A DNA stretch of 64,000 bases from Candidatus Omnitrophota bacterium (GTDB lineage Bacteria; Omnitrophota; Gorgyraeia; S143-82). The position numbers and the translations under genes were made by a program. Below the pieces are notes generated by a model. It was not told the origin of the DNA. It was given only the letters and a program-made list of their open reading frames with translations, and ran no database searches. The stretch lies in assembly GCA_015494465.1 (NCBI GenBank), contig WGBD01000001.1, forward strand, positions 180,477 to 244,476. The letters are read 5' to 3'. Below are positions 2,685 to 62,289 of this stretch, one piece after another (position 1 is the first letter of the stretch; each line of letters starts with the position of its first letter).

Positions 2685-2689
2685 AATCC

Positions 2690-6167: not shown

Positions 6168-6194
6168 GTCGACGAGGGAATCTACCCTTCCGAC

Positions 6195-8233: not shown

Positions 8234-11200
8234 TTAGACCGCAGTCTCAAATGCCCGGCGAACCTCCACCGGCGGGGCCTTATGCCACAGACGGAACCAC
8301 AACCCACGCCACCTCTGATTTATCACTATCAGGCCATCGCGCAGGCGCCTCCACAGCCTGTACACCCCGTACATAAACGGATTCCTCTCCCATATCTCTC
8401 TGGTAAGCCACCAACGCCACTCCTCTGCCATCTCGAACAAACTTATCCCGAACATACTCAAGGACTTTACCTCCTCCGGCCACTTCCGGGAGGCGATGTC
8501 CATCAACTCCTTTATCCGGTACACCTCCATACCCGGTATTATCTTGGCCACCACCCGGCCCACATAGTAGGAGATGCTCTTGCGGTAGACCTGAGATATT
8601 AGACTGCTCATGTAATCGAACATGGAGAAGAACAACTCCTCTTTGCTGGCAGTCGGCCTCAACTGCCTCTCTATCCCGAAGTGCAGGCCTGCCCTCAGCA
8701 TTATCCTGCTCGCCCGGCCGTTCTCCAACAGGACCGGGTGTATATAGAGGATGCCCTTATCCGCATCCATTAGCATAGGCCTCTCCGCCATCCGTATCTC
8801 CCTGTAGCGCAACAGGGCGGTCAGTATCTCATCCTCGCTATAACCCTCTCTCACCAACGCGTCCACGACATCCTTCAATGCCCTCCTCATGTGGAGGCTA
8901 TCCCTCACCCCTTCTATCCTGATGGAGTCTATCGCATCGGTGATCCTTGCCCTTGGAGAGAACAGGCCCAGTAGTTCTTCTTTGAAGGAGGACTCGTCCT
9001 CCCTCATTGCAGAGGCATCCAGGACCAACACCCCGTTATCCAGAAGTTGCACCGCCTTTGCCCCCTCCGGCCTGTCCTCTACCCAGATCAGAACGTAATC
9101 CGCTCTCACCCCCGCCTGCCTGAGCCAGAACCTCACCTTCGCCTCCATATGGGCCATCTCCATCCTGCGCAAGAGCCCAGCCTTGCGCACATCCACCAAG
9201 ACCTTCGCACCCGGCCGGACCTCCCTCACCGAGACCTCAAACCTTAAGCCCGCATCCTTACGCTTCAGGGGTGCCACATCTATACCCATTCTCGTTCCGC
9301 GGAACCAGTTCCTCACCCTTGCCTTCAACCTCATCCACACACCCGCATCCGACGGCCCGGGCACCTGCCTAACCCGGCCCCTGCTCCTCACCCCCTGCAG
9401 GGCCAGGCGCACGGGCACGATCACATAGGTAAGTCCAATCCAAACGGTGTATACCGCCATCAAGGGTATCGCCATAATCACCGCCAACGGACCCCTATCA
9501 AACAGGGCCCAGAACCGGGAGGGCCTCAAGCCCGGCATACCGTACTTCTGCTCGAGTTCGTCCTCAACCTTGACCAAGGCATTCAGGACATCGCGTATCT
9601 CCTTCTCGCTTATCTCCACTTCATCCAGATCCGGGACCTCATCCTTGTAGGCCTCCAGTTTGCCATATAAGGTCATTTCCAAATTATGCAAGGGGACTTT
9701 CCGCTTTTTTTCTTTGTTGAGTATATACTTCTCATTTACAAACGCCCAGTACACACCCGCAATCTTGGGGTTCCTCTCCAAGATACCCGCAACCCTGTCT
9801 ATAATCTCGTCCTTCACCGACTCTATCATCCCGTTCTTGGCATACAGGGTAACATAAGCAATCAGTATCTCGGAGATGGTGGTGGAAAGTGCCCGGGCCC
9901 TGTCCTCCCACTTCTCCTGTGCCTTCTTCGTCTCTTTCTTCTCTTCTTTGCCTTTCTCGTTTACCGACGAACCACCTGCACCCGCTTCACCTTTGACCTT
10001 CTCTTTCTTTTCCTCTTCTTTCTTCCCTTTTTCTTCCTCTAAGTCCGGTAACTTCGGCCACCTCGCCAACATCGCAAACAACGGTCCGGCGGAGATCCTG
10101 CGGTAGATCGCATAGGGATTCACCGGGGCCTTCTTCCCGACCTCGTAGTTGTACAGTTTGTAAGGATCGAGGAGGAAGACCCTGCGCATAGTATCTCCCA
10201 GCATCAGGCGGGTAATCACTCCTTCAACCGCATCCGCAACGCCGTACCAGTAGATACGGCCAAGTTGCTTTATCCTAAACAACATTCTGTATCGACTCTC
10301 GCCATTCGCCATCAACACTCCGGCCACCCATCCCAGACCTGCCCCCAGTATGGCAAACGGCCAGAGAGAAAGGACTCCCAAAACCCCCGAACCCACGATG
10401 GCAGATCCAATCAACGACTTTATTCCCATAACCACACCGGGGAGCAATACCGCCCCTGCCACCGCCCCGGCAATCGCAACGACCCTGCCCCCCTTGCCCA
10501 GCAACTCCCACAGGTTCTTCGTCGGCCGTTTATCCGCCGGATTCATAAGGGCAGGACCAAGTGCACCCGCTATCGGCATAAAGAAGGTCACACCCCAGAG
10601 CACCATCTTGAGCGGAGATGCCCCTGCGAACAGGAAGGTCAACAGGGATATCAGGGCGTACTGCTTTATCGTGCGGTAGGCTATGCCGTATATCCGCTTC
10701 TCCGGTGCGTAGGCAAGTTGGGCACCCTTTCCGGGCGTAGTGATAAACCGGGCGTACATCTTCATACCCACCTGCCCCACGCTCTCCTCGTACATAAACA
10801 GCCAGTGCACATAGGCCCAGTACAGGCGGGCGGGTATCTCCTTGAGCATGTCTTTTATGCCCCTTTTCCAGCCCTTTCCGAGGATACGGACATGGTAGAG
10901 GAGGAGGTTGATGTTTATCGCCTGAGAGAGGAGCAGTCCCGATATCCACAGGGCAAGCGGAGTAGCGGTAAACGGATTCCAGTCCAGTATCAGGAAGGCC
11001 AGAAGCGCCCAGCGGATGTACCGGGTGATAAGGACCTTCTTGGTGTAGAAGCCAAGACCGTCCAGCCAGTAATTGTTCAGTATGTAGGCCCAGGAACTGG
11101 ACGGTGCGAGCATCATGTTGATGCTGTATCTGCTATAGGCACTCTCCGGGGCATCCTGCGACCACTTATAGACCGGAGTTGCCGCGTCCACATACTGATA

Positions 11201-14200: not shown

Positions 14201-17200
14201 AATCTCGGTAAGGCCGTCGAGGAAGCGGTTGAACATAGAGGCCCGCATGTTCACATAGTACTGATTGAGATACGGATCCTTCTTCCAGCCCTCTGCGGAG
14301 AAGAACTCGTCCATCCGATCTGCCAACTCTTGCTTATAGGCATCCGAGGCGAGGATGTATCCAAGGGCGATGGACAACAACCTCCTCCTGCCCACCTCCT
14401 CGTCCATACCCAAGGCCTGCAGGCGCTTGGCAGAATCGCGCAGGTCCTCTTCCATCTTCCTGCGCTCCTCATCGCTTAAACGGCCTGCAAACCTCTTCAG
14501 GAAGCCACCAAGATTCTCCCTGCCCGAGGAGATCCAATCAATAATCCCGTCTAGATCGGAAACTCCTCTAAAGGAATCCCAGGCCACCGCAGGGAGAGAG
14601 AAGTTGCCTATCCGGACCAACTCCCGTGAGGCCCTCATCAAGGCCTTCTTTGCCTTGGGATACTTACTCAGATCCGCACCGGAGAGGGAGGCAAGTATGA
14701 GCGCAAGGGTAAGGGCCTGCAGATCCTCCCTGCCTTCCAGTTTATCCCTCAACTCCTGCCAGGAGACATCCTCACCCAATCCCAGTCTATTGCGCACCTC
14801 ATTGACGAAGCCTCCGCCTCTCAGGAAAGCGACCTTCTCGTCATCGCGGTCCACCTGATAGCGGGTCTTGAACATTGCCTCCACGAACTCCAGAGAATTG
14901 CGGAAGCCAAGCGCCCTCTGTCTGGCCATCATAACCAATGCGGTCTCTTCCTTGCTCAATCCCAGTTCCTGAACCTGGCGCCAGGTCATAGAGTTGAGGT
15001 TGAGTCGGAACTGGGAATACATCTTACGCAATTGCTTCCTGCTCAGCCAGTAGACCACCGGCACCCCGAACACCGCCACCAGCATAGGCAGGACGAACAG
15101 GAGCCCGCCTATCCAGAGGTACCAGAAGGCAAAGAGACCAACAGCAGTCGGCAATATCACCCTATAGGCCTCAGAAGGAGAGAGCTGTTTGGTCAACAGC
15201 CCTACAATCGCCCCCAGCCAGTTGCGGTTCCCCTGCCAATCCCGGGCAGTGCCTTCTTTCGGTTTTGCCTTTATCGGTTTTTCCAGATCCGGAGTCCTGT
15301 ACTCATCTTTATGCCTTATTACCTGTTCCACCGCGGAGGCAAAGTAAGGAGAAAGCTCCTCAGCCAGATGGGAAACCGCCTCGGTATCCGCAACCAATTC
15401 ACCTTCCTTGAGCACCTTTTCGAGGATTCCCTCGGGTGTCCCTACGGGGAAGATGCCGAACAGGATCTTACCGAGGAAGGAGTTGCGGAAGTAATCCCAG
15501 AGGTGAACGAAGGTTGGCACTCCCTCTGCGGTGCTCATGTCTCGAGTGAGCTGGGTAGTAGAGTAGATGAGCACCCCGTTCCTGAGCAAGATGTATTTCC
15601 GGCCGAGATCCTTGGTGCTCTTCTGGTACTTGTGGGTAGGGATAACCTCTATCGCGGTGTAGTCGTTGCCCTCTTCGTCCTGCCAGACATACCTCTTGAC
15701 ATGGAACTGCTCAAACCACTTACCTCTATTCGCATCGTACAGGTATTCCGCCAAGGCGTTCCCGTTCTTGTCCACGAAGGAGACATAATAGAGATCCCTA
15801 TCACCGTAGTACCTGCGGATGTAGATCCTGGTCCCCATGGGCAGATGGGTATCACCCGGATTGCGAACTTCCAGGATAAAGGTCTCGGCAAACTCGGCCC
15901 GGTTCTTCTCAAACCCTATTAGGACGAAGGAGACATTACCGATCTTGACCAACCTCCTGGCACCACCCTGAGCAACCCTGTGGAGGATTTCTGCCTTATC
16001 GCCTAGGATCTGTCGCACCTGCTCTACTTCGGATGTGATCTGACCTATCCTGTAAAGCGATCCCTGTAGGATACGGCGGGGTACGATCTTGCCGTTTTCC
16101 CTATCCACTTCCACGGACAACTTGCCAACAGGATTGCTCAAACCGATGTCGTAAGTGCCCATCAACAGGACATCTACCCAGCGACGAGGCTTATACACCT
16201 TCCAGTTACCGTTGACCTCTCGTTCAGCAACAAGATCTCTAACCACCACATTCACCATCTTAGCCAATACTTGTCTTGCCCCTTCTCCCTGTAGATGCCC
16301 CAGATCGACCTGTTTCAGGAAGAAGTGCAAGGCCTTATCGTCCAGAAGGTCCAGATACGCCCTTTCGTTCATCTCGGTCCAGACCTTATAGATCTTGTGA
16401 TTGACGAGATCGATCTCGTAGCCCATCACCGGGAACTTGTCCAACCACTTTCCGTAAAGGGTTATCGACAGGATCTCGCCCTTTTCGTTAATCTCCAACC
16501 TGCCTACCTCTCTCGCTGCCGGATCGCCTGCCTTCACGAGAGATACGATTACCTTGCCGTTAGAGACCACCCTCGTCCGACCCAAGCTAAGATCCGTACC
16601 TCGCAACCTGGCGAACAGCTCTAACATCTCTTTGGAGACCGTAGGATCTATCCCCCGTATATTCTGGAGTATGTGCTTTATAAGTGAATCCCCACTCATC
16701 TCTCCAAAGGACTCCAATTCCGCAATAGTGCTCTCTTTCCCGGGACCTCTCAGTACCCACTTTCCTTTACAAATAGTACCTCCTATCGGAGGCTGAACTG
16801 CCACACCGGTAGCCGGAATCGGGAAGGCCTTTTCTTTACGACTCTCCGACATGATCTTCATCAACTGACCAAACGGATTGTTGGAGGCACGATAGTCCTG
16901 GATTACCATGCTCTTGTCAAAGTAGATCACCTGAGCAGTCACGAAGACATCGCCGTCTTTTTTGGAGACATCCGCCTGCACGATCTTACCTACATTGATC
17001 CAGTTCCCCTCCGTCAGCTGATACCTCTCCATAACCACCGGCTCGCTCAACAGGAACTGGCGAGGCAGGAGCATCACCGGCGGAACGAGTCCTTTCTCAT
17101 CCACCACGAACTCCACCAACTCCTGTCCCAAGGCATTATCCTCGGGCACATAAACCTTTATGTGATCCATACCAGAAATAGGATTGCGCCTGATGGTGAA

Positions 17201-29200: not shown

Positions 29201-32200
29201 AAGCACCTCCGCCGAGGGAGAACCCATCCCCGCAAGGGCATCCACCGCCTCCTGCACACCTACCGATCCTGCTCTATGGGCAGAGGTCTTTCCAAGGAGA
29301 TCTCCAACTTTTGCCTCAGCGGGGAACAGATTCTTGACCGTTTCCCCGAGATCACCGCTCGCCTCCAGAACCGCACCTTTTTCTACGGCCTTCCGCGCAA
29401 CCCTTTCGCTCGCCTCGTCCACAGCCTGGCGCAACAGGTCGCGGGCAGGAGTGGAGGTTATCCTTATCGATCCCTTCAAGGCCTCTTGGAAGACAGGATG
29501 CTGGAGGAGACTGGTCCTTACCAAACGATAATTCTCATTGACCCGAGCGGCTTTCATCCTGCTGATCTCATACGGGGACTCGAAGGACTTAATGGCAATA
29601 GCGGCATCTACTATTTCCTCCCTAACCTTACCGTAAGTCTCGGGAGAGAGGCTTAACTGAGATTTGTCTCCGAATAAGGTGCCGGTCAACTTCTTGGCGA
29701 TACTGACCACATCGTTCACCTCTTTTCCGGAGATGCGGGCCTGAATCGCCTTTTCTATCTCACTTTCCATCTTGGTACGATCCACCTGCGGTTTCTCTAC
29801 CCCATTCGCAGTATCCTTAGAGATCAATGTCCCAAGTCTTCCCCCAACCGCATTTTCAATATCTGCCCTTAACCGCTCCCTGGAAAGCCCGTTCCTTTCA
29901 CCGATCCCCTCAGCAAACTTCCTCAGAGAGGAGACATAGGCGTCAATGGTTATCCTGCCTTCCGCAAATTCCTTTCCATAGCCTTTTAGAAGGGCATCCA
30001 CGGATTGAGCCACCCGTCCTTCTCTCGCCATGTTCAAAGTGGATATCTCAAAGGCCATCTCGGGGCTGAGTCCCATCTGCCTCAGTCCCCGGAAACTCCT
30101 GCCCTCCTGCGCAAGGACCTCCATAGCCTTCCTCTGGTTAAGGCTATTGACGAGGGCATCCTGATGCATCCTCTTCTCACCGGTCAGCACCTTCACTGCC
30201 TCGCCTCCGCTCATCTCCTGCACCGGCAGACGATAGGATCCTTCTTTCAACATAGACCGCACAGCCCCTGCAGAAATGGAGTTCGCCCTCCCCAAAGGCA
30301 TCTCGTGGATACCCAACACCTTACTGCCCGGAATACGAGGCGCAAGGGCCACCTCACCGCTCCGCTTGGTCTCTATACGGTAGAAGAGGTTCGTCACCTC
30401 CCGTGCAACCGGATGGACCCGGCGGGACTTCACTTCGGAGGTAGAAACTTTCCCGGTTAGCACCTTATTCACATCCCTTTCTAAGCCCTGTAGATTCTCC
30501 GCCACATGTCCCACGGAAGACTGAACAACAGTCCTACCCACCAACGCAGTAGAGAGGGCCTTCCCTCCGAAGGTCGCCCCTACCCCCATCATTGCTGCTT
30601 CACTAGTCATTGCCATACCGAATTCCTTGGGAAGGCTCTTCCACGCACCAAATCCCTCCCTGGCTCCTCTCAAGGCACCTCTAAGGCCAAATTGCCCTTC
30701 GACGGCCTCCCCCCTCCAGCCTTTTACCGCTCCTTCACCCGCACGCAGGATCCGCCCCGTCCCCACATGGGCAACACTGGCCCCCAACAGCGTCCCGGCA
30801 AAACCGGTGAGGTTCTCGTAAACCCCACGACGCTGATCAATACTTTTCAGATTGCCCGCCAAGGCCTGTCCGACCAGAGCCCTGTTGTGCCACATCCAAC
30901 CCAGTTGACGGCTCGCCTCAGCGTAGAACGGCCGTATCACAAACCATGTGTTTGCCAGATCAAAGGCAAGAGAGGAAGAAAAACTCGCCCCCCGCGTCAG
31001 CCTGCTGAATCCACCAAAGAGGAGGCCAAAGGCCCCCATAGTAAGCGAAGTCTCGGCTCCTTTGTATAGCAAACCATACAGGAGATACCTCCTATTCCCG
31101 GTCTGCTCGTATCTTTTCAAGAGATACTCCTGCTTCGTCTTAACGCCTGCTTTATTGAGGTCCTCTCGTCCGATCCAGAATACGGCCCTATCCATCGCCC
31201 TGCTCACCCCGGCAGAAACAAGTCCCATCGCCCGGCCTCCCAATGACTGCCCGTTTCCTGCAGGAACGAAGAAAGAAGCAGTTGCCACGGTCCTGATTAA
31301 AGACGCAGAACTAACCCCGGCACCTGTCGGGACCAAGGCCCTGCCCCCACCGAGGGCAATACGCTCGCCTACGCCAGATCCCAAACCGGAGAGTCTCCCG
31401 GAGACCCTCGCCCCGATACCGGTGATCCTGCCCCTCAGTTCTCCCCCGAGCCGTCCTCCCCATTCCACAACTCTACCTGCTACCCTGCCCACCAATCTTC
31501 CTTCCAGACCGCTACCAACGCTCTCCCAGATCCTAACGGGTACCCCACGAATCCCCTTAATCTTGCCCATCACCCTACCCGCACCAATTACCCTAGACCC
31601 TGCGCGGCCCAATGTCCCCTTGGCCACCTCAACCACCCTGCCGGCCCTAACGGCCCCCACGACTGGGGCGAGGGCAGCACCGGCCAATACTTCCACGGCA
31701 GCCGAATGGGCTAAGATAGGAGCAATCGCATGTAGATACCCTATTGACTTGCCTATCTTCTGCGCAGCCCCATACTTCTCATCTACTACCTTGGATACTT
31801 TCTCCGGCGACAGGCCCGTCAGTATTGGCACGAGACTCTTAAACTCACCTACATAGCCACGACTCATTAGATCTAACTCACGGTTCAGAGTTCGTTCGGA
31901 TCGCTTGGCAGACTCCTTATGCCCAAACATCCGCTCCAAAATGATCCCTATTTTCGCCGGGATCTTGACTAAGAATGAAACAGGTGCCAGCGATTGCCGA
32001 ACGCCTGTCGAAAATGTATCCCCTATGTAAGCGTCCCTCCAATCCTTTAACAACTGCGGATTCTCCTTGAACGCCTTGCCTAACTTCTTTCTCAGGGCAG
32101 CGAAACTCTCCCAGGTGTGCTGGGTGACGAATTTCTTATAAGCCTCGCTAAGGTCCTGCCTGTTCCTCAGCGGATTAGTAACCCAGAGGTGGCGTAGTTC

Positions 32201-35200: not shown

Positions 35201-38200
35201 GACCATTCGCTCGGAAATATTGCCCCGATCCCAAGCAAATCTTATATTCATAGGATCAACACGGCCCTGTGGCAGATTCTTATTCCCCTGCTCTGCAAAG
35301 TCCCTCCCTATGGTCTTGTTCCCAAAAGATATAGTCGAAGAAAGCACACGGGTTGGAGTAAATGTAACGTTCATCTGAGTGATAGGCCCGCCCTGCATCT
35401 CATCGGTTATGTCGGCCTGGACATTCCAACTACCGGCGCCATAGTAGTAACGCCCATCCTTTATTCGCATTACACTGGTCTTTGCTAAGTCCTCCGGGCG
35501 CACATGCTTCACGACTCGGTGAGAGACCCTGTCCTCTCTCAGGTAGTTATCCACAGCCACAAATCCCCGGGTCTCGGGATTGGTGTATTTACCAAACTTC
35601 ACTATCAGATTTTTATTCATTGAGGCATCAAAGAGATCACCGGATCCAGAAATGCTTGTAGAACCACCGAATCCCGGAAGGGATTGGGCAATACCCTCAA
35701 ACTTTACCTTTGCTTTATCCATATAACCGAGGTTATAAGGGTTCACATCATCCCCAAGAGATGTTATAAAGTCGAACTGGAAAGGAGGCATTTCGCCTTT
35801 TGTATTACTACCGGAAGTCTGTGAAGCACCCGCACCCGTCTCTGATACAGTCTGCTGAGGCGCAGCCAATGCCACAAGAAATTTATCATCTTTACTTCTA
35901 AGCACTTTATCTTCTGGACTCAAGACCATAGACCTAGTTTCGCCTGTCTGGATGGAGTAATCCCGCCATAGGAAAGCGTCTAACGGATTATCTTCTAAAG
36001 TAGAAAATGTCTTCTCTGGGCCAAACAATAGATTTAAGGTCCATTCTTCACCTGGATAGTATGCAGTTAATTCCCCTCGAACCTCTTTCGAAGATCCTTC
36101 AAGCTTATCCATATGATAACTCAGTTTGAAACCTTCACCCCTCATAACCGTATTTACATCAAATGTAGCAGATACAGGTTTTTCAAATTGCGCCTCCGCT
36201 TCGTATCCGATGCCATTTTCCACCCTGTACCTATCAAAAGCAATGTGGCTAATTCTGGCTGCCGTGCCTGGGGCGAGTTCTAACTTATTGTCCAATACTG
36301 CCGTCCAGAACTTCTGTTTGCTTATAGGCTCTACCCACCCTGTCTTCTCAGACAGAGCAAATCCCCGCCGGATGCCGTTTATCTCAATCTCACCGGCCTT
36401 TTTACCCCAAAGCATAGTATTCCGGAAGTCAAACGCCATCCCTTCCTCTGCAAAGGGATTCACCCTCATCCCCGCCCTCAATGACGCAAAGACCTCCTTC
36501 GCTCTCACTCCCTCGTCGGCCTTCAACCTCGCCTTCCCAACATTTTCGGGTAACTCCGCAGTAAGGGCGACGACATCTCTGGACAGTTGAGTCGTCCGCA
36601 CGGATGCAAGTGCCTGTGGGGTGGGTTGTCTTTGAGGTGAGGGTGTATTCGTGGATCTGACTGTTTTATCCCAAGAAAAATGAAATATGCTTCCTTCGTC
36701 CATCCAGTATTCATCCGATTCTTTCCGATGGATAACTCCGGTGGTATACACCCATTCCCTCCCTATCTGGTGAACACCCTTCGGGAGACCCGTGCCCTTT
36801 TCAATGAGATCGTTTCTACCCCAACTGAACACCGGCACTTTTCCCTCAGGGCTTAAATAGTAAAACCTCCCACCAACTATCCCGTCGCTTAATAACATAC
36901 CCATCTCACCGGGCAAATTCCCCTTAGCAAACCTCTCCTCTAATCTCCCCAAATACGCCTTACCGGTCTCCTCCTTACGCAGGATGTTATCCAGTTGTCC
37001 AAGGTCCGTCCCCCCCGCTTCCAAGCGGCGGAAGGCCCCTAAGACCCGACCTACATTGAGCTGTCCGGAAGAGGAAAGGTAGGTTGGAACTCGATAGGAA
37101 AAGAACTTCGCATGAGTGGCTATGCCAACGGTGATGTCCTCCTCCATCCGCTCATCATAGGTGTACCTATTCTCAAAAGTGCCTACGGGGGTGTAGGTGG
37201 CCAGATCGTATAATTGACTATTATTGGCATATTCACCAGCGCGATTTACATAACCCAAGAAAGTGGTGCTATTATCCATCCAGCGGGAAAACAATCCCGC
37301 AAACGGCCCCGAACCTTTTCTTATTTTCATACCCAAAACATCTCCGAACTTGATCCCTTTCCCTTCGGATCCATATACACCATTCAATCCCACGAAGACC
37401 GGTCTTTTATCACTGAGATGAAGGGCATAAAGACCGGAGGAGAGAAATATCTTATCCATTATATTCGTAGAGACCGCGTGGGCGCCCTGAGAGACCATCC
37501 TGCCCCAGACCTCACCTGGAGTAGGGAGTAGATGATAACGCCAATCGCTGACGCCGTGCTCCTTCAACTTATCCGCTATCCCGGACATCTGGACTATCCC
37601 GGCGGCATTTGCCAATCTCATTGCATATCCACTCGAGGCTGCCTGATAAGAGGAGAAATCCCCGTAATTGCCAAGCTCCGGCGGACGCCAAGTGGCCAAG
37701 ACTCCCTTCAGTTGACGCATCGAACCCGAAAAGGCCTCTTTCCAGGTTGGCCTGCGGAGGGTCATCTTTCCGTCAGGTCCAACGACCGGATGGGTGGTAG
37801 CCTTGGCCCACAAAGCGCTGGCCCCAACCAGCGCCAAGGTGGTAACCTGTGAACTGGCATAGGGGCTTAGACCTAGTTTATCCTCCGCAAGGTCCTCCAG
37901 CTTGCCAACTGCCAAGTCCGCAATTCCACCTCTGACCCCCGATATCAACACATCCTTCCAAAACTCACTCGAAGCCAAGGACGAACCTGAATAGCCTTCA
38001 CCCGTGGAGGCAATGCCTCTTCCTACCGCAGAGCTTATGGAAGTGCTGACCAATCCCCTCAGGAAGTTGTCTTTTACCCACCCCTTCTTCTCCGCGAGGC
38101 CAGTAACTGCCAATCCCACGCCCTCCGAACCCCATTGAGAGAGGTTAGTTCTAGAAAAAGCATCTTTAATCCCCCGTCCAAAGCCTCCCTTAGTCAAGGG

Positions 38201-39601
38201 CGCGAGTTTGGATTCCAGATCCGAGCCTTTTATCCAAGCAGGCGCTGCATTCTCTCCATCCGGGGTAAGGCTATAGGCAAGGCCGTTCATCAGCGCAGTG
38301 CTGGCTATCTTACCACCTAAACCTGAGATACTCGCCCGCAGATAAGGCTTGGAACTGATGTGCTTGGCGATGAGGTTGTCCACACCTACCACTGATGCTC
38401 CAACTATTCCTCCTTGCAGGGCACCAACCAAAGCCGCCTTGGCCACCGAATGCCCCACCCAATCCACGGTCTTGGACCCCAGGTTCCCGATAATAGTCTT
38501 CTCTACCACCATACGCTTAAAGGCCTCTTCTGTCAGGTGCTGCTGGATGGCTGTCCGTTTCAGGTCGTACATCTGAAGCCCTCCCAGGGTGGCCTGCTGG
38601 GCTACAAAACCGCTCAACTGACCCACCCACACCGGAGCCTTAAGAACCCCAGTGGTAATGTTGGAAGCGATGTTTCCTACATTGGCTGCCGTCAAAGCGG
38701 TGGTAAAGCTCGTCCCCGTGAGAGCGGAACTAACCCCCGCACTTACCAAAGACATGCCCACACTCAGGGCCACATCGCCAAGGCTCATCCCCGGAAGCAT
38801 ATCATCGATGTCCACTGCATCTTCGGGCCCTTCCCTTCTGAACCCACCCCGCAAAGCGAGTGCCTCTTCCAACCGCAGTACTTGATAGCCACCACGCACT
38901 CTATTAAGATCCCTCCTTGGAACCAGCACCACACCAGAGAAGTGCTCCGAGAAGTCTTTCAAGGGCGAGATAAACATCTCGCCATTGCTCACATATGCCA
39001 TTACCTTCCCAACCGACAGGACCTCAACATAGTGCCCGCCAAAGCTATCCAGGAGGGCGATAAAGCGCAGGCCTGTGAGGGCCAACAAATCCTTCACCCT
39101 TATAGGCACCAGCGGAAGGTGGTGATACGCAGAAAGCAGAGCCAAGGCGTAGACGGAGACCTGTTTGAAGTTCCCAGTCCCACCGGCCTCAATGAGATCC
39201 ACCATCCTAGAATAGAGGCCAAAGCCCTTTTTAGGCGAGACACCGTTGTCCAACAGGAATTGGTAAAGGACCTCCTCACCACAGTTGGCGAGGTAATCCC
39301 AGACCTTGTGCGGGTGTTTGCTTACGCCCCAGGCCAACAAGGCCTTCCTCAGCCACTTATCGTCCTTTGCATATCCCCACCTTACCGCAAGATCGTAGGC
39401 AAGGGAAGGGGGCAGCTTTTCTCCCAAGACCTGCAAGGCGGTACTCTGCACCTGTGAGGCCAAGGTCCCTAACCGGATGTGGCGGGCGAGGAAATTAGGA
39501 TCGTAACCGTATGCCCAAGAGATATTTTCAAATATGAATAAAATGCTTGTAAAAATCGCCAAAAATTGGGCAAAAATTTTTCTGCCCTTCATAGGCAACA
39601 C
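8234..39601 (-). CDS. giant multi-domain membrane-associated protein (10,455 aa). Its domains are a C39/papain-like peptidase, a SecA-like DEAD motor ATPase, YD/RHS-like repeats, low-complexity tracts and multiple TM clusters
   Basis: A single uninterrupted reading frame of 31,368 nt. It starts at a GTG at 39601, or at the ATG at 39592 preceded by AAGGGG, and lies 34 nt downstream of the tadC-like gene. The internal motifs listed in the findings are read directly from the translation. Confidence 0.85.
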   Translation of the reverse strand: MLPMKGRKIFAQFLAIFTSILFIFENISWAYGYDPNFLARHIRLGTLASQVQSTALQVLGEKLPPSLAYDLAVRWGYAKDDKWLRKALLAWGVSKHPHKVWDYLANCGEEVLYQFLLDNGVSPKKGFGLYSRMVDLIEAGGTGNFKQVSVYALALLSAYHHLPLVPIRVKDLLALTGLRFIALLDSFGGHYVEVLSVGKVMAYVSNGEMFISPLKDFSEHFSGVVLVPRRDLNRVRGGYQVLRLEEALALRGGFRREGPEDAVDIDDMLPGMSLGDVALSVGMSLVSAGVSSALTGTSFTTALTAANVGNIASNITTGVLKAPVWVGQLSGFVAQQATLGGLQMYDLKRTAIQQHLTEEAFKRMVVEKTIIGNLGSKTVDWVGHSVAKAALVGALQGGIVGASVVGVDNLIAKHISSKPYLRASISGLGGKIASTALMNGLAYSLTPDGENAAPAWIKGSDLESKLAPLTKGGFGRGIKDAFSRTNLSQWGSEGVGLAVTGLAEKKGWVKDNFLRGLVSTSISSAVGRGIASTGEGYSGSSLASSEFWKDVLISGVRGGIADLAVGKLEDLAEDKLGLSPYASSQVTTLALVGASALWAKATTHPVVGPDGKMTLRRPTWKEAFSGSMRQLKGVLATWRPPELGNYGDFSSYQAASSGYAMRLANAAGIVQMSGIADKLKEHGVSDWRYHLLPTPGEVWGRMVSQGAHAVSTNIMDKIFLSSGLYALHLSDKRPVFVGLNGVYGSEGKGIKFGDVLGMKIRKGSGPFAGLFSRWMDNSTTFLGYVNRAGEYANNSQLYDLATYTPVGTFENRYTYDERMEEDITVGIATHAKFFSYRVPTYLSSSGQLNVGRVLGAFRRLEAGGTDLGQLDNILRKEETGKAYLGRLEERFAKGNLPGEMGMLLSDGIVGGRFYYLSPEGKVPVFSWGRNDLIEKGTGLPKGVHQIGREWVYTTGVIHRKESDEYWMDEGSIFHFSWDKTVRSTNTPSPQRQPTPQALASVRTTQLSRDVVALTAELPENVGKARLKADEGVRAKEVFASLRAGMRVNPFAEEGMAFDFRNTMLWGKKAGEIEINGIRRGFALSEKTGWVEPISKQKFWTAVLDNKLELAPGTAARISHIAFDRYRVENGIGYEAEAQFEKPVSATFDVNTVMRGEGFKLSYHMDKLEGSSKEVRGELTAYYPGEEWTLNLLFGPEKTFSTLEDNPLDAFLWRDYSIQTGETRSMVLSPEDKVLRSKDDKFLVALAAPQQTVSETGAGASQTSGSNTKGEMPPFQFDFITSLGDDVNPYNLGYMDKAKVKFEGIAQSLPGFGGSTSISGSGDLFDASMNKNLIVKFGKYTNPETRGFVAVDNYLREDRVSHRVVKHVRPEDLAKTSVMRIKDGRYYYGAGSWNVQADITDEMQGGPITQMNVTFTPTRVLSSTISFGNKTIGRDFAEQGNKNLPQGRVDPMNIRFAWDRGNISERMVATIPVYDSKGNERAGVYGLDVVRTSQSLIDAGAWWAKRVSATYSRVWGTRLLPDRAPPRGQPPQDQPIPEGHGFMDIKWVKEVISSNPDSPAKDRYLLVSLSNALANPQSSTYDIIPRNLVVRGQGPIKETYLGGLLADKVDMDARPEQGGAWDFYFNEAGAISSYKGVLKHGALITQNNVTHLDTVLRDEKTGETHKVKVDFGHGVSFTWDVTPDQGINRRINATKPLDVTVSYNNYKNQQAKMSVDKSGRAFINGKNRLTLPVHAMRISGGNPDSGNAGRPKKIDIPKTEADFVGRASELVAELNFKPPSKILLNNTFSSVRIGKGSAEVTGDFVDRRVLTNITIHGETADRMPITYGTGKNGAPNVVNQVAFTNKMTATFNPNGEVKFSGVNEGQVVWIQIPFEGKRGWVKVQTPDVGNVKEAANVRRIKEGRLKFEEAKYKLRGGNLTLAGGKGLKVAFKVDGVSNWRQSNLSYDRAHNAWKVEGENWFVPFLSAGPGSSPGSGSSGGISTIEVKVRKEGAGLLATDQRLTIFMTNMYGTLSAYQSNAVKLRFTGDVENANYLLVGTFNTGRSAKTPVQNIEVLQNINRGATYDRVTGFGGVNLTGGTTVANMYNLASQKQVLLAREVTNNQIKGIFETAKGVEDLAEKLNALKISREVKDAIIKAYKGETLTDKEMKALNELGIGIGTLSLSSKKADIVALTGGGTGIRGDLNIKVAHGRQELVTQKVQVNAGAVNIKGDLPVLVNVIAVPSSPKPKGPVEATRAGARVYKEGDIVRAKGVEWSLTGLGTVANATGRFAGNLAMAKDYFYFSDGKTRPIFPTAIVRGPSGDIKGVNIVRGWTWGDKVRDRRGLVSIAKMVYGVHIDTSAGKNGVYLAGDDRMLTVKALQDLSGKEWRAFIPNLDEKKGLVRYEEKGLFMGKSAVALKALRPQETTISFVNRSLQDTAFRQYFKNYSWSNSLEGLKKQGLTAEYIRPSVLFQVSSDYYAHKVAQSPELRHLWVTNPLRNRQDLSEAYKKFVTQHTWESFAALRKKLGKAFKENPQLLKDWRDAYIGDTFSTGVRQSLAPVSFLVKIPAKIGIILERMFGHKESAKRSERTLNRELDLMSRGYVGEFKSLVPILTGLSPEKVSKVVDEKYGAAQKIGKSIGYLHAIAPILAHSAAVEVLAGAALAPVVGAVRAGRVVEVAKGTLGRAGSRVIGAGRVMGKIKGIRGVPVRIWESVGSGLEGRLVGRVAGRVVEWGGRLGGELRGRITGIGARVSGRLSGLGSGVGERIALGGGRALVPTGAGVSSASLIRTVATASFFVPAGNGQSLGGRAMGLVSAGVSRAMDRAVFWIGREDLNKAGVKTKQEYLLKRYEQTGNRRYLLYGLLYKGAETSLTMGAFGLLFGGFSRLTRGASFSSSLAFDLANTWFVIRPFYAEASRQLGWMWHNRALVGQALAGNLKSIDQRRGVYENLTGFAGTLLGASVAHVGTGRILRAGEGAVKGWRGEAVEGQFGLRGALRGAREGFGAWKSLPKEFGMAMTSEAAMMGVGATFGGKALSTALVGRTVVQSSVGHVAENLQGLERDVNKVLTGKVSTSEVKSRRVHPVAREVTNLFYRIETKRSGEVALAPRIPGSKVLGIHEMPLGRANSISAGAVRSMLKEGSYRLPVQEMSGGEAVKVLTGEKRMHQDALVNSLNQRKAMEVLAQEGRSFRGLRQMGLSPEMAFEISTLNMAREGRVAQSVDALLKGYGKEFAEGRITIDAYVSSLRKFAEGIGERNGLSRERLRADIENAVGGRLGTLISKDTANGVEKPQVDRTKMESEIEKAIQARISGKEVNDVVSIAKKLTGTLFGDKSQLSLSPETYGKVREEIVDAAIAIKSFESPYEISRMKAARVNENYRLVRTSLLQHPVFQEALKGSIRITSTPARDLLRQAVDEASERVARKAVEKGAVLEASGDLGETVKNLFPAEAKVGDLLGKTSAHRAGSVGVQEAVDALAGMGSPSAEVLRSMMKASEGMGGNKDLFRMGAKEFRSVYTEAVKRSTMVESARGILPKEKFALFEQKFDALVAKIDKGLGEQMVQEGETGVKVDGKEVRHAVKVILKEFAPDMKLSKEEVESLSRHIGGAVLASWATKEAFRKVENKGFKPKAVQELKGILGAKFWNIEAPVGGGKTYASEMMAISHNYAKEGFTELYLANSALVKNFVDNKVIQEALKLTGNKMYVMTSNENLIRDYRGKENIKVIDPTKMDAKEIREVLTNTNERRVVVGEYSAFQQAMNKLYEAGEYTAFIAKRREIGDRARVIIDEEAILRTPVDAIIGDGGAPIADVVEKEIQPAWEGVKRALGRYEGKGFEEFLNENFNYNQQTGMFEIKEGANPQVLKDFRLERRGDKLVGKGVSVAGVNSLVTVLAEIEGVKVGGGKLVFDRMVSWYGKEKRFVPYSEGQFRPEQISKNVQYVGAKAFLSGLISKGEFKPEEVRVGAEQVKHVSTLLKERGFDYKAALENTRAGGITVTSTSVGELLNVARLGDVVFLSGTLRDIEPLVEGITGKRVKTIGRPITLVLDGEKVVMTSGKQTGVFWDVFKEEKKDKFINNVVNGIVSGLNLKGKEKVDAYYVVVEDTGMRQEILKRLREKGINAEDYTDKPEELESVARNLGEKGAGAPEVILVSELGARGITAGDKARVDLIDIVSPSQSKALAEQVLGRINRKEGGSSGNAYIYVADSLVKNFLKENLFRSKDVSRTLDLIDQVDMRVMKTRTEAKARVKASNVSYKEMWKKIRSDILDKDGNLKEEELDKYLEGEGKEKSKVLALYLAGMQAVESAKATRRILTDVMRANLFTTPWKMFVSGAKNGVLGRPEVYERLKRIETEEILNPKDNPFEQLLSREKILTPEELVRESLEAVRTQMDRMIDRVEREVGKGVAKDLKEAFRYGELDAYLRGEAKGQEIGKIVERLWGKDVLNGGSSAVSQSHLEREMKKEARVEVQTAPSSQPEFTPQWNEGAISALMVEKAPGHGRTAYDTAKVVVNALAKDMPVEVRRNLEYQLARSFAGMSPTTLRAPPAVANLLNGALNKLPNQISSALQSVNQITAQISQLNPNQVSNEQLQQISVQLNSLLANPVVSNVLAEDKNQILNQAIENISKGSFNGDTQKQVVEALSEIGKKLNTRKDEVETLNEKFTSPAQALAGIKNISEKVGDKTGEIRDALTHVFVNPNLSYEQALRVVGYSELMRNRLGITDEDFIRKEAFRAKDMGLEEFLNNLSVRLSTPKRVGASKVASVNLAHQRAKMEFLREWRNPSLGWSGKIGALGGYLGSVASSSLKAILSTPLAVERELALPEIDNGKVLDNIGALKGQLGLRLRDRMIPSFSFSAPVGPMPKVATGTALAGVVGLGLLLLNPSIALATGGAIAVAGASGIAKVIAGVSSLPVLGWSVLNRGVPKRGIRWSEIESKGLTALGLNSLEDGKLAREMATAMLAGGKAEAVRSVLSGLETALGDRAKAIEDNITVRDAMKLADSDVSLRDKFDILARYLPDEGQLRGLKRALAEASAPANPFATMLENRWMAKFAQVDPVSSAIDAVARAVVNNGVENTDLVGKVLSALVNGGNEDLSSLLGAGERANKQFKDLVDRYRKEGRLARLYHKGLSVQSRVLGRKGYLLPLTVLTVTSGGAGLLAMFGTYAGWKAVTKGPGAIMSDLANSRLSLTTAVPVLAGMSFLPSVGMPAAVAAALAGAAGGAVLGIGRELRALLSQLREANWKEAIRKTDWRSLAGSAFKAGAGLGAIYAGGMLATAHASLWAYWGIGIPALFVGYSQFIQGWLGLRRTAASLSNEKMTGYAGNEALKVAVDSLGRVELVPDESNRLEGISGDRERLVKEFGLKEETIKRLSEAEVSSLRRELERRKEEYLLSAYSSVRSAGFVWEMDEVALKEFAQRFMGLDEARLSNLSVHELRRTIANWYARLGITGLPKKLAVYAWVADKLGWSTARRMVDGVMFVPRTMIHLLDSFFGQSFRKRWLVAQFRDYRVLPEEEVNRVVSAFLSLPEEERGNFGIVGKTRSAFERNVTLGGTLDFLKRRGTLFVLSSLATLGVANLFALAPFLSTGVVSLFGHKVAIAPYLANTFSLSALFTAPSMVKVRRIRSAQRKLDELLRAVGYQNNAPPVRVDDTTAVRELLRKLREEQDLEDERLVGLARSLQFFWPEVEWRSLVNELGLDVKEVRLSLPERTVSYLATFGRGLFSSTTLRYALPGMVPLMLLPLEIHMVLSTAHHLHISWLVAPIETTMLNLVRSGVMVASSVVLPGLGSSVAGLVGGVNERDRLAKEAGKATSEPSFLERTLGRALNWLMGSVASPVKAGERPKEIKKGPAPVKVKTPKITNPVKVQQKIEQATIEAKKPVPEKVLNALETEFRKALNWKKIQRKMLNKETYALQVEGPEYSIKKVFTNPIAFKKWVKKIKEEGGEVIVKNAINGQILTPADLDAIHREGKNVPVMLEVKAKSGEEYRFFFGYHAWEKDKAVQEQYLVSREVANALDRALAEGDVERALKVLDDYIKGLSSGRSGGEGGDDPNAQILRELKRVRQMLQAKASARQTGPIVAVVMDVDPVTGIPTGVKALISKGELKEVILPDGRKQVLVKVGDKEYEVKAYRVKGTSDELEEVTWEEIKSKASGSLQFRIVVKGEKDARRMPMLFGTVWSAKQEFARSILSAISQASMVSHLEGQVRAGTAWFFATLGSAFVSPQIGAGFKLAAILFGILDRYVGRHDYEQAFRQKLNDYLLWVMAVEKVRKENAGRKLDPTSTAVRGEVLKAYKWLKSKYGQDLNEADYQELYRLFMSAIRNVDEDKDFVKALGQGDATEKLDRDILTFTGILSSLAELTEKDWDRGAKEVFHNYWFGLPWEIKLHNIVYKFIDREYLSYDHAPKYKVEKSKGPYGREKAKKLNRLPIGVTIDVRYILHQLREFVDKTNTLEEVRDRNPLFKLLFWWKDSLKDALHIYLWGVDITLPFRIKATKDLVEILTNQKKGYEDTDVLLVKGRDVKEKMSLEEFESRLAEFDPAKGGWVLLGYMSPSGKMSGENKGSSVPVYAYVEVKKGRLGQPDAEIEVKGMAMFTSKGVRKSLEISRQKYQNMLKYFRVVNQRQGGVIIEELDEKGHTKEIVDIRPGKDAQRTARRLQTSAAQIVRFWDVYKRYHFRVQEMKEALKGAKGPDRKILLQGIEAIRTLEEEGVDVSRLKEVFDVDMYFSKFYLPYKDGSVKRFTIIVSTDEVAKQVKRLKLQGEFARKVEGALKQGKIAISVGKENGEVKEVVVDEKEVRAIFNKINHLPDVERIKAFRKDFVNIPIDLDGDGEKEVITVHFPSGDKPVEVDWVNPDTGLVEKLVIKDGHLLAQISANGKVTIYNWKKYSDERDFLVKDSAEVYEFSRDVRGRSWDEIRRLIYTGKARHLYHIRIHQILRDPNKEVVDLSEITEIHEVLDLRTGEKKKVFYGWFLQPVMVEKRGDRFAENHQIIENEFDRQGRLKRSAVYKGRDSRLYLAELWERALVDKDGNASFKVIKFTPDRSEIARETVKLDIFGRDIERKLANGGVIKTLYGGLSDLPKRVIFYRPDGKVAKEIYDIHIEKGGMAVGKVKGEDTAWYEETWVWDRKELSADPVLKMNANTVEQVKEIREDGTVVREVKDKHGELLKRIEEKWVKIDGKVWKVAEVWSYREGKSYQISDAYGDLIARAVPTRYVDEKGSTSYGLVWTRVIYEGKIAGNRVRMREAILVDYLPKDIRDLLPRMLSGKWDGARQEILERARSRYDAKKKEVWVRFEKYVRYRTKDGKTRTGVKTREEKVGPAGVPVRVKLVDKKYDQEWWIRKVYPEKGGLTPERQVILERTPLGELADIRGQNEEVTGEVTIAGKVYTIKRVVDRKTKVAYAVIEGDWDELKERLSPELISKITSSLKKDVRAWRSGILLKEKGKHYFVYAQGEEYIEVQAKGLDEIKGLPENVKAKLRDLLQERKVLPNAYLAFTIRRNPISGMDHIKVYVPEDNALGQELVEFVVDEKGLVPPVMLLPRQFLLSEPVVMERYQLTEGNWINVGKIVQADVSKKDGDVFVTAQVIYFDKSMVIQDYRASNNPFGQLMKIMSESRKEKAFPIPATGVAVQPPIGGTICKGKWVLRGPGKESTIAELESFGEMSGDSLIKHILQNIRGIDPTVSKEMLELFARLRGTDLSLGRTRVVSNGKVIVSLVKAGDPAAREVGRLEINEKGEILSITLYGKWLDKFPVMGYEIDLVNHKIYKVWTEMNERAYLDLLDDKALHFFLKQVDLGHLQGEGARQVLAKMVNVVVRDLVAEREVNGNWKVYKPRRWVDVLLMGTYDIGLSNPVGKLSVEVDRENGKIVPRRILQGSLYRIGQITSEVEQVRQILGDKAEILHRVAQGGARRLVKIGNVSFVLIGFEKNRAEFAETFILEVRNPGDTHLPMGTRIYIRRYYGDRDLYYVSFVDKNGNALAEYLYDANRGKWFEQFHVKRYVWQDEEGNDYTAIEVIPTHKYQKSTKDLGRKYILLRNGVLIYSTTQLTRDMSTAEGVPTFVHLWDYFRNSFLGKILFGIFPVGTPEGILEKVLKEGELVADTEAVSHLAEELSPYFASAVEQVIRHKDEYRTPDLEKPIKAKPKEGTARDWQGNRNWLGAIVGLLTKQLSPSEAYRVILPTAVGLFAFWYLWIGGLLFVLPMLVAVFGVPVVYWLSRKQLRKMYSQFRLNLNSMTWRQVQELGLSKEETALVMMARQRALGFRNSLEFVEAMFKTRYQVDRDDEKVAFLRGGGFVNEVRNRLGLGEDVSWQELRDKLEGREDLQALTLALILASLSGADLSKYPKAKKALMRASRELVRIGNFSLPAVAWDSFRGVSDLDGIIDWISSGRENLGGFLKRFAGRLSDEERRKMEEDLRDSAKRLQALGMDEEVGRRRLLSIALGYILASDAYKQELADRMDEFFSAEGWKKDPYLNQYYVNMRASMFNRFLDGLTEINGRPRLKVEVVDFPGEEELAKEDLFIFDYTDDMNPYPVDFEYGRFSYGALHGVRYWLGMNALISRGIYSLTSQGRFEEWLWENIVSKRIYDEDIVSAVNALIPQISNLRSVLIKVMASNISAHETQRDAATLIRGKGRVMTEEVLNIVFRYLNQVNRGLYKGNSAQVRESAKALQDTLVAIAEGKEVSPAELDRAMFRFYKALIDAGDVILTGRRFNIWEYKFKELGFVWKNMGRIFSQGAVNNLTYKERMRRIAHLAIMLSSLGLALLIGSYFDWDVVNVGVPAGVDLRSLVGLPLAGAIAVVSVALYDTQVKRRLTGRSLILAQTILGLALLALAGAVVLHTFHAPVIPSTVIEIPDPVRYALAVGAYVLAFFTMVVLTPFSQSYLTMGSLGLRTMNEMALYAVGDNPKEIRRALVDLLTDERVGYVNTRLTLGEENRVKFALVLEAMSSTEEGEMLISPEVVRQLERAMGITRGEDGEIDVDRFGAVDRAELERLLDALLKNGAIKSRFRDFANQLLRRGGLTLYRSASEFDNQIIVHNGYSELPFFTVNELFAKNENEDHMVSRIGLLLSVPEKREEFVALKDYARSMREKGPEWTYLEKMLDDLLAYADRPEDIPDVHTWLEKLFGEKAKTEGVEKALNLLTVWANRRLQAAVNTTSTARWALNRVYTATLILNKESVRDRLEEMVNYKAVLPETVISYAFKKGYTPDEEGKLLYDWASERLKEDLPKLSEREVRDLYLSSRIRVVSRLLQPHMNVAQNEEIFDLEKDVDTYKRFFYGAMETSERVRDLWEKGQGAIEDARVPGKVIGENGGIATHGLKRFLYEVIATDSMPFIMSSNEQFHGAKWNQFAAVVPLSTSRAILAVDADHAFRPENQFAEVGELMNYRFDSYASATIPKIRHHMSKGFGIIGKVLPVGEEGFYASHIGKYEIGGMGAYGKFFIRTTPMRWSEGATTSYVAEDLMTVIAFQSFTGGDRYPVGYYVSQNPSMIIEKAWPYQYVDAATPVYKWSQDAPESAYSRYSINMMLAPSSSWAYILNNYWLDGLGFYTKKVLITRYIRWALLAFLILDWNPFTATPLALWISGLLLSQAININLLLYHVRILGKGWKRGIKDMLKEIPARLYWAYVHWLFMYEESVGQVGMKMYARFITTPGKGAQLAYAPEKRIYGIAYRTIKQYALISLLTFLFAGASPLKMVLWGVTFFMPIAGALGPALMNPADKRPTKNLWELLGKGGRVVAIAGAVAGAVLLPGVVMGIKSLIGSAIVGSGVLGVLSLWPFAILGAGLGWVAGVLMANGESRYRMLFRIKQLGRIYWYGVADAVEGVITRLMLGDTMRRVFLLDPYKLYNYEVGKKAPVNPYAIYRRISAGPLFAMLARWPKLPDLEEEKGKKEEEKKEKVKGEAGAGGSSVNEKGKEEKKETKKAQEKWEDRARALSTTISEILIAYVTLYAKNGMIESVKDEIIDRVAGILERNPKIAGVYWAFVNEKYILNKEKKRKVPLHNLEMTLYGKLEAYKDEVPDLDEVEISEKEIRDVLNALVKVEDELEQKYGMPGLRPSRFWALFDRGPLAVIMAIPLMAVYTVWIGLTYVIVPVRLALQGVRSRGRVRQVPGPSDAGVWMRLKARVRNWFRGTRMGIDVAPLKRKDAGLRFEVSVREVRPGAKVLVDVRKAGLLRRMEMAHMEAKVRFWLRQAGVRADYVLIWVEDRPEGAKAVQLLDNGVLVLDASAMREDESSFKEELLGLFSPRARITDAIDSIRIEGVRDSLHMRRALKDVVDALVREGYSEDEILTALLRYREIRMAERPMLMDADKGILYIHPVLLENGRASRIMLRAGLHFGIERQLRPTASKEELFFSMFDYMSSLISQVYRKSISYYVGRVVAKIIPGMEVYRIKELMDIASRKWPEEVKSLSMFGISLFEMAEEWRWWLTREIWERNPFMYGVYRLWRRLRDGLIVINQRWRGLWFRLWHKAPPVEVRRAFETAV

Positions 39602-43344: not shown

Positions 43345-43583
43345 CTCCGATCCTTCCTAAACTCATAAAAGGAAGAGCCCTTATAAGGCAAAGAAATCCT
43401 CGGCAAGCTACTCCCAGGAATCCGGCGATAAAAGATTAACCTGTACGCCCGAAAGCGCTTGTTCATATCAAACGACACCCAACTTATAAAAGAAACCATA
43501 GCGCTTACGAAAAGCGCCAATACTGCAACCGCTATTATGGTATCCAATAACACCTGTCCTTCGTTACCACGAGAAACTCTCAT
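43341..43583 (-). CDS. TadE-like minor pilin / pseudopilin (short)
   Basis: The internal start gives MRVSRGNEGQVLLDTIIAVAVLALFVSAMVSF, a class III-like signal plus hydrophobic helix. The longer track ORF (to 43631) overlaps the upstream gene by 68 nt. Confidence 0.45.
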   Translation of the reverse strand: MRVSRGNEGQVLLDTIIAVAVLALFVSAMVSFISWVSFDMNKRFRAYRLIFYRRIPGSSLPRISLPYKGSSFYEFRKDRR

Positions 43584-58841: not shown

Positions 58842-58944
58842 ATCAGCACCTCCTCTTTCTTCCCGTCACTCTACCGACTTCCTAATTTAACATTCTATCC
58901 CAATCTCCTCTGAAAGTCAAAAATGGATTTAAACTTTTTTAAAA

Positions 58945-61420: not shown

Positions 61421-61422
61421 GT

Positions 61423-62277: not shown

Positions 62278-62289
62278 AGTTGTGCCCTT

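Follow-up and report, generated by a model that had tools for sequence, protein, structure and literature searches.

Does a single open reading frame (ORF) of 31.4 kb behind a pilus locus encode one protein, in what organism, and to what family would such a protein belong? These questions are raised by the window, the whole stretch of 64,000 nucleotides of bacterial DNA that was analysed, in which a giant gene directly follows the tadC-like gene of a Tad pilus locus. The giant ORF is a real gene under purifying selection. Most probably it is an Omnitrophota gene, one of those that encode giant membrane proteins behind the Tad pilus locus. Sequence comparisons indicate that in its product a conserved N-terminal 'handle' is joined to a body that is specific to the lineage and, within it, under purifying selection. 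The host would be one of the ultra-small, possibly predatory Omnitrophota, in which giants after Tad genes are already known.

The ORF listing of the window gives one open frame with a GTG start, and the sole stop in its translation is the terminal one. The remaining five frames carry 114-685 stops each over the same 31 kb. The GC content of the ORF is 53.7%, and by base composition a run of 10,455 codons without a stop has a probability of about 1e-220. An earlier note on this DNA had described a single 31.4-kb ORF of 10,455 amino acids (aa), open beyond chance at about 54% GC and standing in an operon-like position 34 nt past tadC. All of this was confirmed, the tadC-like ORF ending at 39636 with a gap of 34 nt to the GTG; the strand, which is minus, was missing. 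The true start is likely to be the ATG at codon 4, which has AAGGGG 8 nt upstream and at whose position the relatives begin with MRGRK, MQGKK or MGKKR. GC1 exceeds GC2 and GC3 is high in all 20 of the 500-codon blocks that make up codons 1-10,000, and the relative synonymous codon usage (RSCU) correlates with that of 13 neighbouring genes at r = 0.83.

The composition of the gene changes along its length. GC3 is 0.49-0.62 over the first ~3,000 codons and 0.63-0.75 after them, and the RSCU correlation with the neighbours is 0.69 in the first third and 0.84-0.87 in the remainder. The N-terminal third and the rest of the giant may have separate histories. The strand opposite the giant (window plus strand, 10265-39457) contains many long spurious ORFs of up to 542 aa.

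The origin of the gene was traced through its neighbour. All TadC homologs that are at least 48% identical and have a source name come from Candidatus Omnitrophica/Omnitrophota. A scan of the GTDB species genomes with the TadC alignment gave 80 loci, the best of which, in a Ca. Omnitrophota metagenome-assembled genome (MAG), is 63% identical over the full length. Most of the top loci belong either to Omnitrophota, Ca. Velamenicoccus archaeovorus LiM (L083) included, or to third-party (TPA) MAGs labelled Planctomycetia, and the Myxococcota loci rank lower, at 37-43%. The Planctomycetia and Planctomycetales labels among the top matches are probably wrong and hide Omnitrophota, because one such genome (L082, a TPA MAG named 'uncultured Planctomycetia bacterium') gave nearly the same results as V. 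archaeovorus LiM in every comparison. TadC, synteny and the N-terminal homology described below point, indirectly, to an Omnitrophota bacterium as the source of the window gene.

The position of the giant is shared by these relatives. Their DNA was visible in a 10-kb flank past tadC, equivalent to 2,500-3,300 aa. In the Omnitrophota-type loci with enough sequence, the ORF past tadC is open to the end of this flank. The next ORFs past tadC in the Myxococcota loci are 500-1,400 aa long, and none of them, among the 80 loci fetched, stays open through the flank. The gene calls that follow tadC in related MAGs have 16,032, 5,886, at least 5,202 and at least 4,275 aa. The giant ORF of V. archaeovorus starts at about CP019384.1:29,823, which coincides with the end of its published Tad locus, 12382-29832 (Seymour et al. 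2023, PMC10066038). The gene order of the Tad locus is as in the window in V. archaeovorus and in six further loci (L004, L005, L007, L008, L089 and L091).

The N-terminus is the part of the giant that binds this group together. It begins with a predicted Sec-type signal peptide whose cleavage-region motif is conserved in relatives. A peptidase-like domain of the papain-like C39 family follows. Its Cys107 and His190 are invariant in an alignment with four relatives and, after extension, across 24 relatives. A profile of five sequences matched the solved C39 double-glycine peptidase domains 6MPZ (E = 0.005) and 7N87 (E = 0.36) around the catalytic His. The Pfam family Peptidase_C39 (PF03412) was matched by two of the five relatives with a best E of 1.9e-7, and the score of L008, 26.2 bits, exceeded the cutoff of 22. 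The N-terminal Cys/His peptidase that the earlier note had proposed is supported by these matches. A hidden Markov model (HMM) of the N-terminal module (A1) matched 24 ORFs downstream of tadC with E of 1e-10 to 1e-106, and the N-terminus of the V. archaeovorus giant with E = 7.6e-12. By these matches, a signal peptide and C39 module is common to at least 24 Omnitrophota-type loci, that of V. archaeovorus included.

The domain resembles the C39 peptidases of the bacteriocin/AMS-PCAT ATP-binding cassette (ABC) exporters (6MPZ, 7N87) in the positions of Cys and His, in the GH[FY]V and F[ST]G..L[IV] motifs and in having a double-glycine-type motif as putative substrate. Unlike those peptidases, it follows a signal peptide and stands, by fusion, at the N-terminus of a giant, whereas they are part of an ABC transporter; its putative site is on the same polypeptide, C-terminal to it. 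The C39 domain of the giant is probably outside the cytoplasm because it follows the signal peptide. The putative site conforms to [DE]-x-x-A-x-x-[IVL]-x-G-[GAS] in 24 of 24 aligned members, with the first Gly invariant. It is located ~55 residues past the catalytic His, after the point where the solved C39 fold ends. Double-glycine leaders, the substrates of C39 peptidases, have this signature, which makes the motif a candidate self-cleavage (autoprocessing) site. No cleavage points are known in the giants (West-Roberts et al. 2023, bioRxiv 10.1101/2023.11.21.568195).

A C39 module conserved at the N-terminus, with one conserved double-glycine-like site right behind it, would also suit a polyprotein, a single chain that its own C39 peptidase cuts into many functional proteins, so that the 'giant' is a fused operon. 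This possibility was raised by West-Roberts et al. 2023. It is unlikely here, as the other double-glycine-like motifs are at chance frequency and searches of the body revealed no independent enzyme or domain that could be recognised. Elsewhere in the giant such motifs occur 1, 7 and 2 times compared to 1.0, 4.2 and 1.2 expected, and this lack of enrichment means that there is no sign of multi-site processing. A tiling of the giant by many double-glycine C39 sites was rejected on the same counts.

Behind the handle the similarity ends. In four relatives whose TadC is 62-67% identical (L005, L007, L009 and L091), only the first ~320-790 aa can be aligned, at 29-37% identity. No similarity beyond the alignable N-terminus was detected between the giant and these four, nor among the four themselves. 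More than 90% of the giant lacks a Pfam domain and any homolog detected beyond its near-identical relatives. Pfam, searched with tiles of 3,400 and 1,000 aa at E <= 0.01, and NCBIfam, searched with shifted tiles, gave no significant family anywhere in the giant, and self-BLAST found no internal repeats. The 'recognisable modules' of which the protein had earlier been said to be a mosaic are therefore not supported as a general description. A search of the Protein Data Bank (PDB) sequences with phmmer gave no match for aa 1-5000, 5001-10000, 3601-4200 or 9101-9650, and a word-indexed search of 5.8 billion proteins gave no relative of aa 3561-4300 or 9050-9800. Scans for the DNA of the putative motor segment in GTDB genomes and JGI metagenomes, and for the conserved C-terminal stretch in JGI metagenomes, returned nothing. 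The one match in an exhaustive HMMER search of 1.84 billion representatives with aa 3401-4400 was spurious: a chance similarity over 35 aa that tandem repeats had multiplied. Large protein collections miss the giant itself, and hence the absence of relatives there is in part a blind spot.

Two properties of the body are consistent with a largely exported membrane protein. The first is its hydropathy. Segments with a Kyte-Doolittle mean of at least 1.5 over 19 aa number ~25 and fall into ~10 clusters across the giant, which agrees, by hydropathy alone, with the at least eight clusters of transmembrane (TM) helices of the earlier note. In the C-terminal part the predicted TM segments are at aa 8162-8180, 8721-8850 (four segments) and 9550-9752 (at least four). 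A glycosyltransferase of the glucan-synthase type, suggested by motifs at aa ~9100-9650 (AVDADH...PENQ, VAEDL), was considered for this part of the chain and dropped, as it had no Pfam, PDB or homolog support.

The second property is the near absence of cysteine. The giant has two Cys in 10,455 aa, one of which is Cys107, and the neighbouring proteins have 1.04%. Pooled over 17 family loci, the visible parts of the giants contain 0.16% Cys compared to 2.05% in the upstream ORFs. V. archaeovorus and L091 have one Cys each in the ~3,250-3,320 aa that are visible, and the Cys at the catalytic position of the C39 module is often the sole one in the family. Avoidance of Cys is known from proteins whose export takes place in the unfolded state, among them autotransporter passengers and RTX proteins. 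The depletion in the giants suggests that most of the chain is exported and that the exported stretches are kept free of disulfides, as in those proteins. The word cysteine is absent from the published papers on giant genes that were checked for it. The family-wide Cys depletion, the conserved double-glycine-like motif and the joining of a conserved handle to a body unique to each lineage may be new.

The interior of the body had been read differently. According to the earlier note, the giant is an undescribed polytopic protein with a SecA-type translocase motor and YD-like repeats. Around aa 3600-4200 there are indeed motifs in the order of superfamily 2 (SF2): a Walker A motif APVGGGKT (aa ~3627), IIDEEAILRTP (aa ~3763), ARGIT and GRINRKEGGSS (aa ~4160). 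As in SecA, Walker A has the form GxGKT, DE..-x-RTP is reminiscent of DEVDSILIDEARTP, GRxxR is followed by GSS...Y, and order and spacing are similar. These motifs are, however, common to SF2 helicases generally, and the HSD, HWD and C-terminal domains of SecA are not evident in the giant. Pfam, NCBIfam and PDB sequence searches matched no SecA domain in the giant, even at E <= 10. E. coli SecA, compared with the giant with filters off, scored <= 0 bits, the weak alignments being collinear at Walker A and motif VI; the query sequence was verified against 6S0K (1,319 bits). A single-sequence AlphaFold2 (AF2) model of aa 3540-4260 had a mean predicted local distance difference test score (pLDDT) of 42.8, with 60-88 in a beta-alpha segment at aa ~3650-3750. 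Foldseek related the model to generic P-loop proteins at E >= 0.016, and SecA appeared at ranks 40 and 45. The combination Walker A...DE...TP was not found in the first ~3,300 aa visible in the relatives, where the 10-kb flank ends before the motor position. The region is described best as P-loop/SF2-like, and its likeness to SecA is unproven.

The 'YD-like' repeats are probably the highly charged region of aa ~5850-8100, which appears rich in beta-hairpins. In the whole giant Y.[YF]D..G occurs 0 times and [YF]D..G twice, and neither a YD core (GxxxRYxYDxxGRL) nor a Pfam RHS_repeat match nor any internal repeat was found. An AF2 model of aa 6800-7500 was unusable (pLDDT 38.9); in it DSSP assigned beta-hairpins with interspersed helices. 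Omnitrophota giants with an RHS-like beta-helix have been published before. The architecture as a whole, which had been thought undescribed, has in fact been published for Omnitrophota giants (West-Roberts et al. 2023; Seymour et al. 2023; Nielsen & Lui 2026, bioRxiv 10.64898/2026.06.07.730766). With the SecA similarity at noise level (best fold E 0.016, to a generic P-loop) and no YD or RHS feature detected, the reading as a new giant with a translocase motor and toxin-like YD/RHS repeats is very improbable.

Other assemblies contain parts of the giant gene. The ordinary proteins of the window are recorded in NCBI and ENA on a contig of 781,960 bp, and close relatives of them are on other contigs. 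A scaffold from a different sample (L003, ENA scaffold_2077) carries the 3' third of the gene at 86% nucleotide and 87.9% aa identity. Its frame is open across aa 7067-9853 and 10028-10455, and the only break is a 100-N scaffold gap (L003:8480-8580) within a Lys/Glu-rich stretch. A MAG contig in NCBI (L004) and an ENA scaffold (L089) have identical synteny, with tadC followed by the first 484-491 aa of the giant. The ratio of nonsynonymous to synonymous substitution rates (dN/dS), computed on a codon alignment that allows for a 1-codon indel, is 0.08-0.19 per 300-codon block between the giant and its relatives and 0.09 at the N-terminus. For reference, the adjacent phosphoenolpyruvate carboxykinase (PEPCK) gene has 0.05. 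An assembly artefact, in which several genes would appear as one ORF through a chimeric join or a hidden frameshift, is highly improbable. Mis-joins would not leave 10,455 codons open, and every block examined shows the coding signature without a break. The two ends and the last third recur in other assemblies with dN/dS of ~0.1, relatives have genes of 5.9-16 thousand aa at the same position and the source contig is 782 kb long. In favour of an artefact are the somewhat different GC3 and codon usage of the first third, the scaffold break of L003 in the Lys/Glu-rich stretch and the want of an independent assembly of aa ~490-7066 in the collections reached.

Between the window and L003 the most conserved stretch is aa 9250-9700, at 93% identity compared to 88% overall. 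This stretch, a large loop with TM helices (window 10502-11854), is a candidate functional core; no homolog or domain was detectable for it. The Lys/Glu-rich stretch also differs in length in L003 and is liable to assembly breaks and indels. The gene calls recorded for L003:1-8400 are small antisense ORFs that replace an open frame of 2,786 codons.

The giant, most probably an Omnitrophota giant of the Tad-linked kind, can be compared with the published ones. In Omnitrophota giants a signal peptide and C39 domain, divergent SecA DEAD domains and numerous TM helices have been described, the divergent SecA DEAD/preprotein-binding domains being present in 'most' of them; upstream of the giants are type II secretion system (T2SS)/pilus genes with a Rotamase_2 peptidyl-prolyl isomerase (PPIase), and one or more pilZ genes are directly downstream in the majority of the loci (West-Roberts et al. 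2023). Tad loci and ORFs of more than 20 kb occur across Omnitrophota, the latter in 77 of 116 Velamenicoccia (Seymour et al. 2023). A recent catalogue holds 5,761 Omnitrophota proteins of at least 10,000 aa; 137 of 916 catalogued proteins (15%) are Pfam-dark, and 80% of clusters are singletons (Nielsen & Lui 2026). Seymour et al. 2023 give the V. archaeovorus LiM giant, after Kizina et al. 2022, as a protein of 39,678 aa with 42 predicted TM helices, and mention its detection by proteomics and its up-regulation in attached cells.

In origin, position, N-terminal module and richness in TM segments the window giant agrees with the Tad-linked giants. Like that of V. archaeovorus, it lies directly after tadB-tadC, has a homologous signal peptide and C39 module and many hydrophobic segments, and is nearly free of Cys (V. 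archaeovorus has 1 Cys in its first 3,246 aa). The neighbourhood of pilins, PPIase, GspF, glycoside hydrolase family 2 (GH2) and sugar uptake genes is that of the V. archaeovorus, or Archaeovorin, type and agrees with the surroundings of giant genes in West-Roberts et al. 2023 and Nielsen & Lui 2026. It differs in being ~4 times shorter and in having no similarity to the V. archaeovorus protein past the first ~530-720 aa. The window giant is also like the Pfam-dark Omnitrophota giants in size class, in the lack of a Pfam match, in its signal peptide and TM segments, in its flanks of T2SS/Tad and GH2 genes and in being unique in sequence, a likeness by published description.

Several observations weigh against this assignment. 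The glycosyltransferase, methyltransferase, glycoside hydrolase, NUDIX and HEAT domains of the Archaeovorin type were undetected in the window giant, as was SecA_DEAD by Pfam, and Pfam and self-BLAST found no dockerin or TSP3 repeats such as distinguish the Dockerin-type giants. No pilZ gene is directly downstream; the next gene, 137 nt on, is a GTP-dependent PEPCK. On its own the window protein is under the threshold of Pfam C39, and its double-glycine-like motifs outside the conserved site do not exceed expectation. The topology of the giant is a prediction from hydropathy, and its C39 activity, cleavage site and ATPase activity are predictions too. The central part, aa ~490-7066, has no independent copy in the assemblies reached. 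The window contains no rRNA or ribosomal-protein marker, so that the taxonomy came from TadC, synteny and N-terminal homology.

The features of the giant suggest how such a protein might work. The signal peptide would lead to insertion by the Sec pathway, and the ~25 hydrophobic segments would thread the chain into the inner membrane, leaving very large exported stretches free of disulfides. The C39-type peptidase may cut after G253, directly behind it, and the N-terminal module would thereby be detached or activated. A cytoplasmic loop may carry an internal P-loop/SF2-type NTPase that drives export or rearrangement. Together with the Tad pilus, the glycoside hydrolases and the sugar importer, the exposed parts could help the bacterium to attach to a host or prey cell and to exploit it; for the V. 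archaeovorus protein a role in host/prey attachment is already proposed in published work. It is also conceivable, with a low probability in our estimate, that the handle, which besides the signal peptide, the C39 peptidase and the double-glycine-like site includes ~300-500 aa rich in Gly, Ala and Ser, is an export and processing module that couples the Cys-free body to a Tad-like machine, the giant being a self-cleaving cargo or surface extension of the pilus system with its own NTPase. If true, this would amount to an undescribed mode of secretion, and the hypervariable body would be a determinant of host specificity.

The genes around the giant, listed with its own features in Table 1, are those of a pilus locus and of sugar utilization. 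The nine Flp-type and two pseudopilin-like ORFs (43341-47332, minus strand) form an unusually large pilin repertoire upstream of tadB and tadC. An orthologue of one Flp-like ORF in L004 gave a faint Class_IIIsignal match. Of the three ORFs between the pilins and tadB, that of 557 aa has an N-terminal TM segment, and those of 96 and 322 aa have pseudopilin-like N-termini. No T2SSE/TadA ATPase or secretin domain was found among the scanned ORFs of at least 150 aa upstream of the giant (39636-63956), so these components are encoded elsewhere or are unrecognisable. Also upstream, ORFs of 557, 861 and 387 aa had no Pfam match and one of 421 aa had weak coiled-coil-type matches alone. The ABC sugar-uptake set comprises two permeases and a solute-binding protein.

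Two relatives have insertions at this locus. In L008, a Ca. Omnitrophica MAG, a ParE/PhD toxin-antitoxin pair and two ORF6N-domain genes (L008:10995-12821) separate tadC from the giant. In L003 an additional gene of 737 aa with a weak UPF0259 match (L003:11924-14137) is located between the PEPCK gene and a NYN-domain gene; it is absent at window 6045-6195.

Table 1. Features of the giant gene and of its neighbourhood, in window coordinates.
Feature	Position	Strand	Remarks
Giant ORF	8234..39601	-	10,455 codons from GTG; ~10,452 aa from ATG 39592 (likely start)
Conserved N-terminal 'handle', aa 1-~720	37442..39601	-	only part with homologs beyond near-identical relatives
Putative Sec-type signal peptide, aa 4-30	39512..39592	-	MKGRK, hydrophobic core, SWA/YGYDP; inferred from sequence
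C39-family (papain-like) peptidase-like domain, aa ~85-232	38906..39349	-	Cys107 (NCGEE), His190 (GGHYVEV)
Double-glycine-like motif, aa 244-253	38843..38872	-	LEEALALRGG/FRR; just past C39 fold
Hydrophobic cluster, aa 2537-2651	31649..31993	-	~2 segments; Kyte-Doolittle
P-loop/SF2-like NTPase motif region, aa ~3600-4200	27002..28804	-	motifs read in sequence
Hydrophobic clusters, aa 4844-4886, 5117-5201, 5537-5768	22298..25072	-	~8 segments; Kyte-Doolittle
Highly charged region, aa ~5850-8100	15302..22054	-	30-36% KRDE; rich in beta-hairpin-like sequence
C-terminal polytopic region	10202..15118	-	predicted TM segments flank ~660-aa loop
Lys/Glu-rich low-complexity stretch, aa ~9850-9900	9902..10054	-	coincides with L003 scaffold gap
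tadC-like gene, 300 aa	39636..40538	-	T2SSF domain; Pfam
tadB-like gene, 284 aa	40543..41397	-	T2SSF domain; Pfam
Three ORFs (557, 96, 322 aa)	41671..44532	-	no Pfam match; syntenic in relatives
Nine tandem Flp-type pilin-like ORFs, 56-124 aa	44507..47332	-	G-Q-S-x-x-E-Y/I, then hydrophobic helix
SurA_N + Rotamase_2 peptidyl-prolyl isomerase	48629..50005	+	PPIase conserved in published giant-gene loci
GspF/PilC-type platform protein	50015..51085	-	two T2SSF domains; Pfam
Two GH2-like hydrolases (GH2 TIM-barrel), TPR protein, ABC sugar uptake	56405..63956	-	domain matches

Giant genes make up several percent of small Omnitrophota genomes. For such genes there is a practical blind spot, the collections searched having returned neither the giant nor relatives of aa 3401-4400, 3561-4300 and 9050-9800. 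The window giant is a useful minimal case of the class: at ~10,000 aa it is short, it is non-repetitive and free of recognised domains, and its relatives show purifying selection. The avoidance of Cys, the double-glycine-like motif and the combination of one handle with dissimilar bodies offer testable handles on the export and processing of these proteins.

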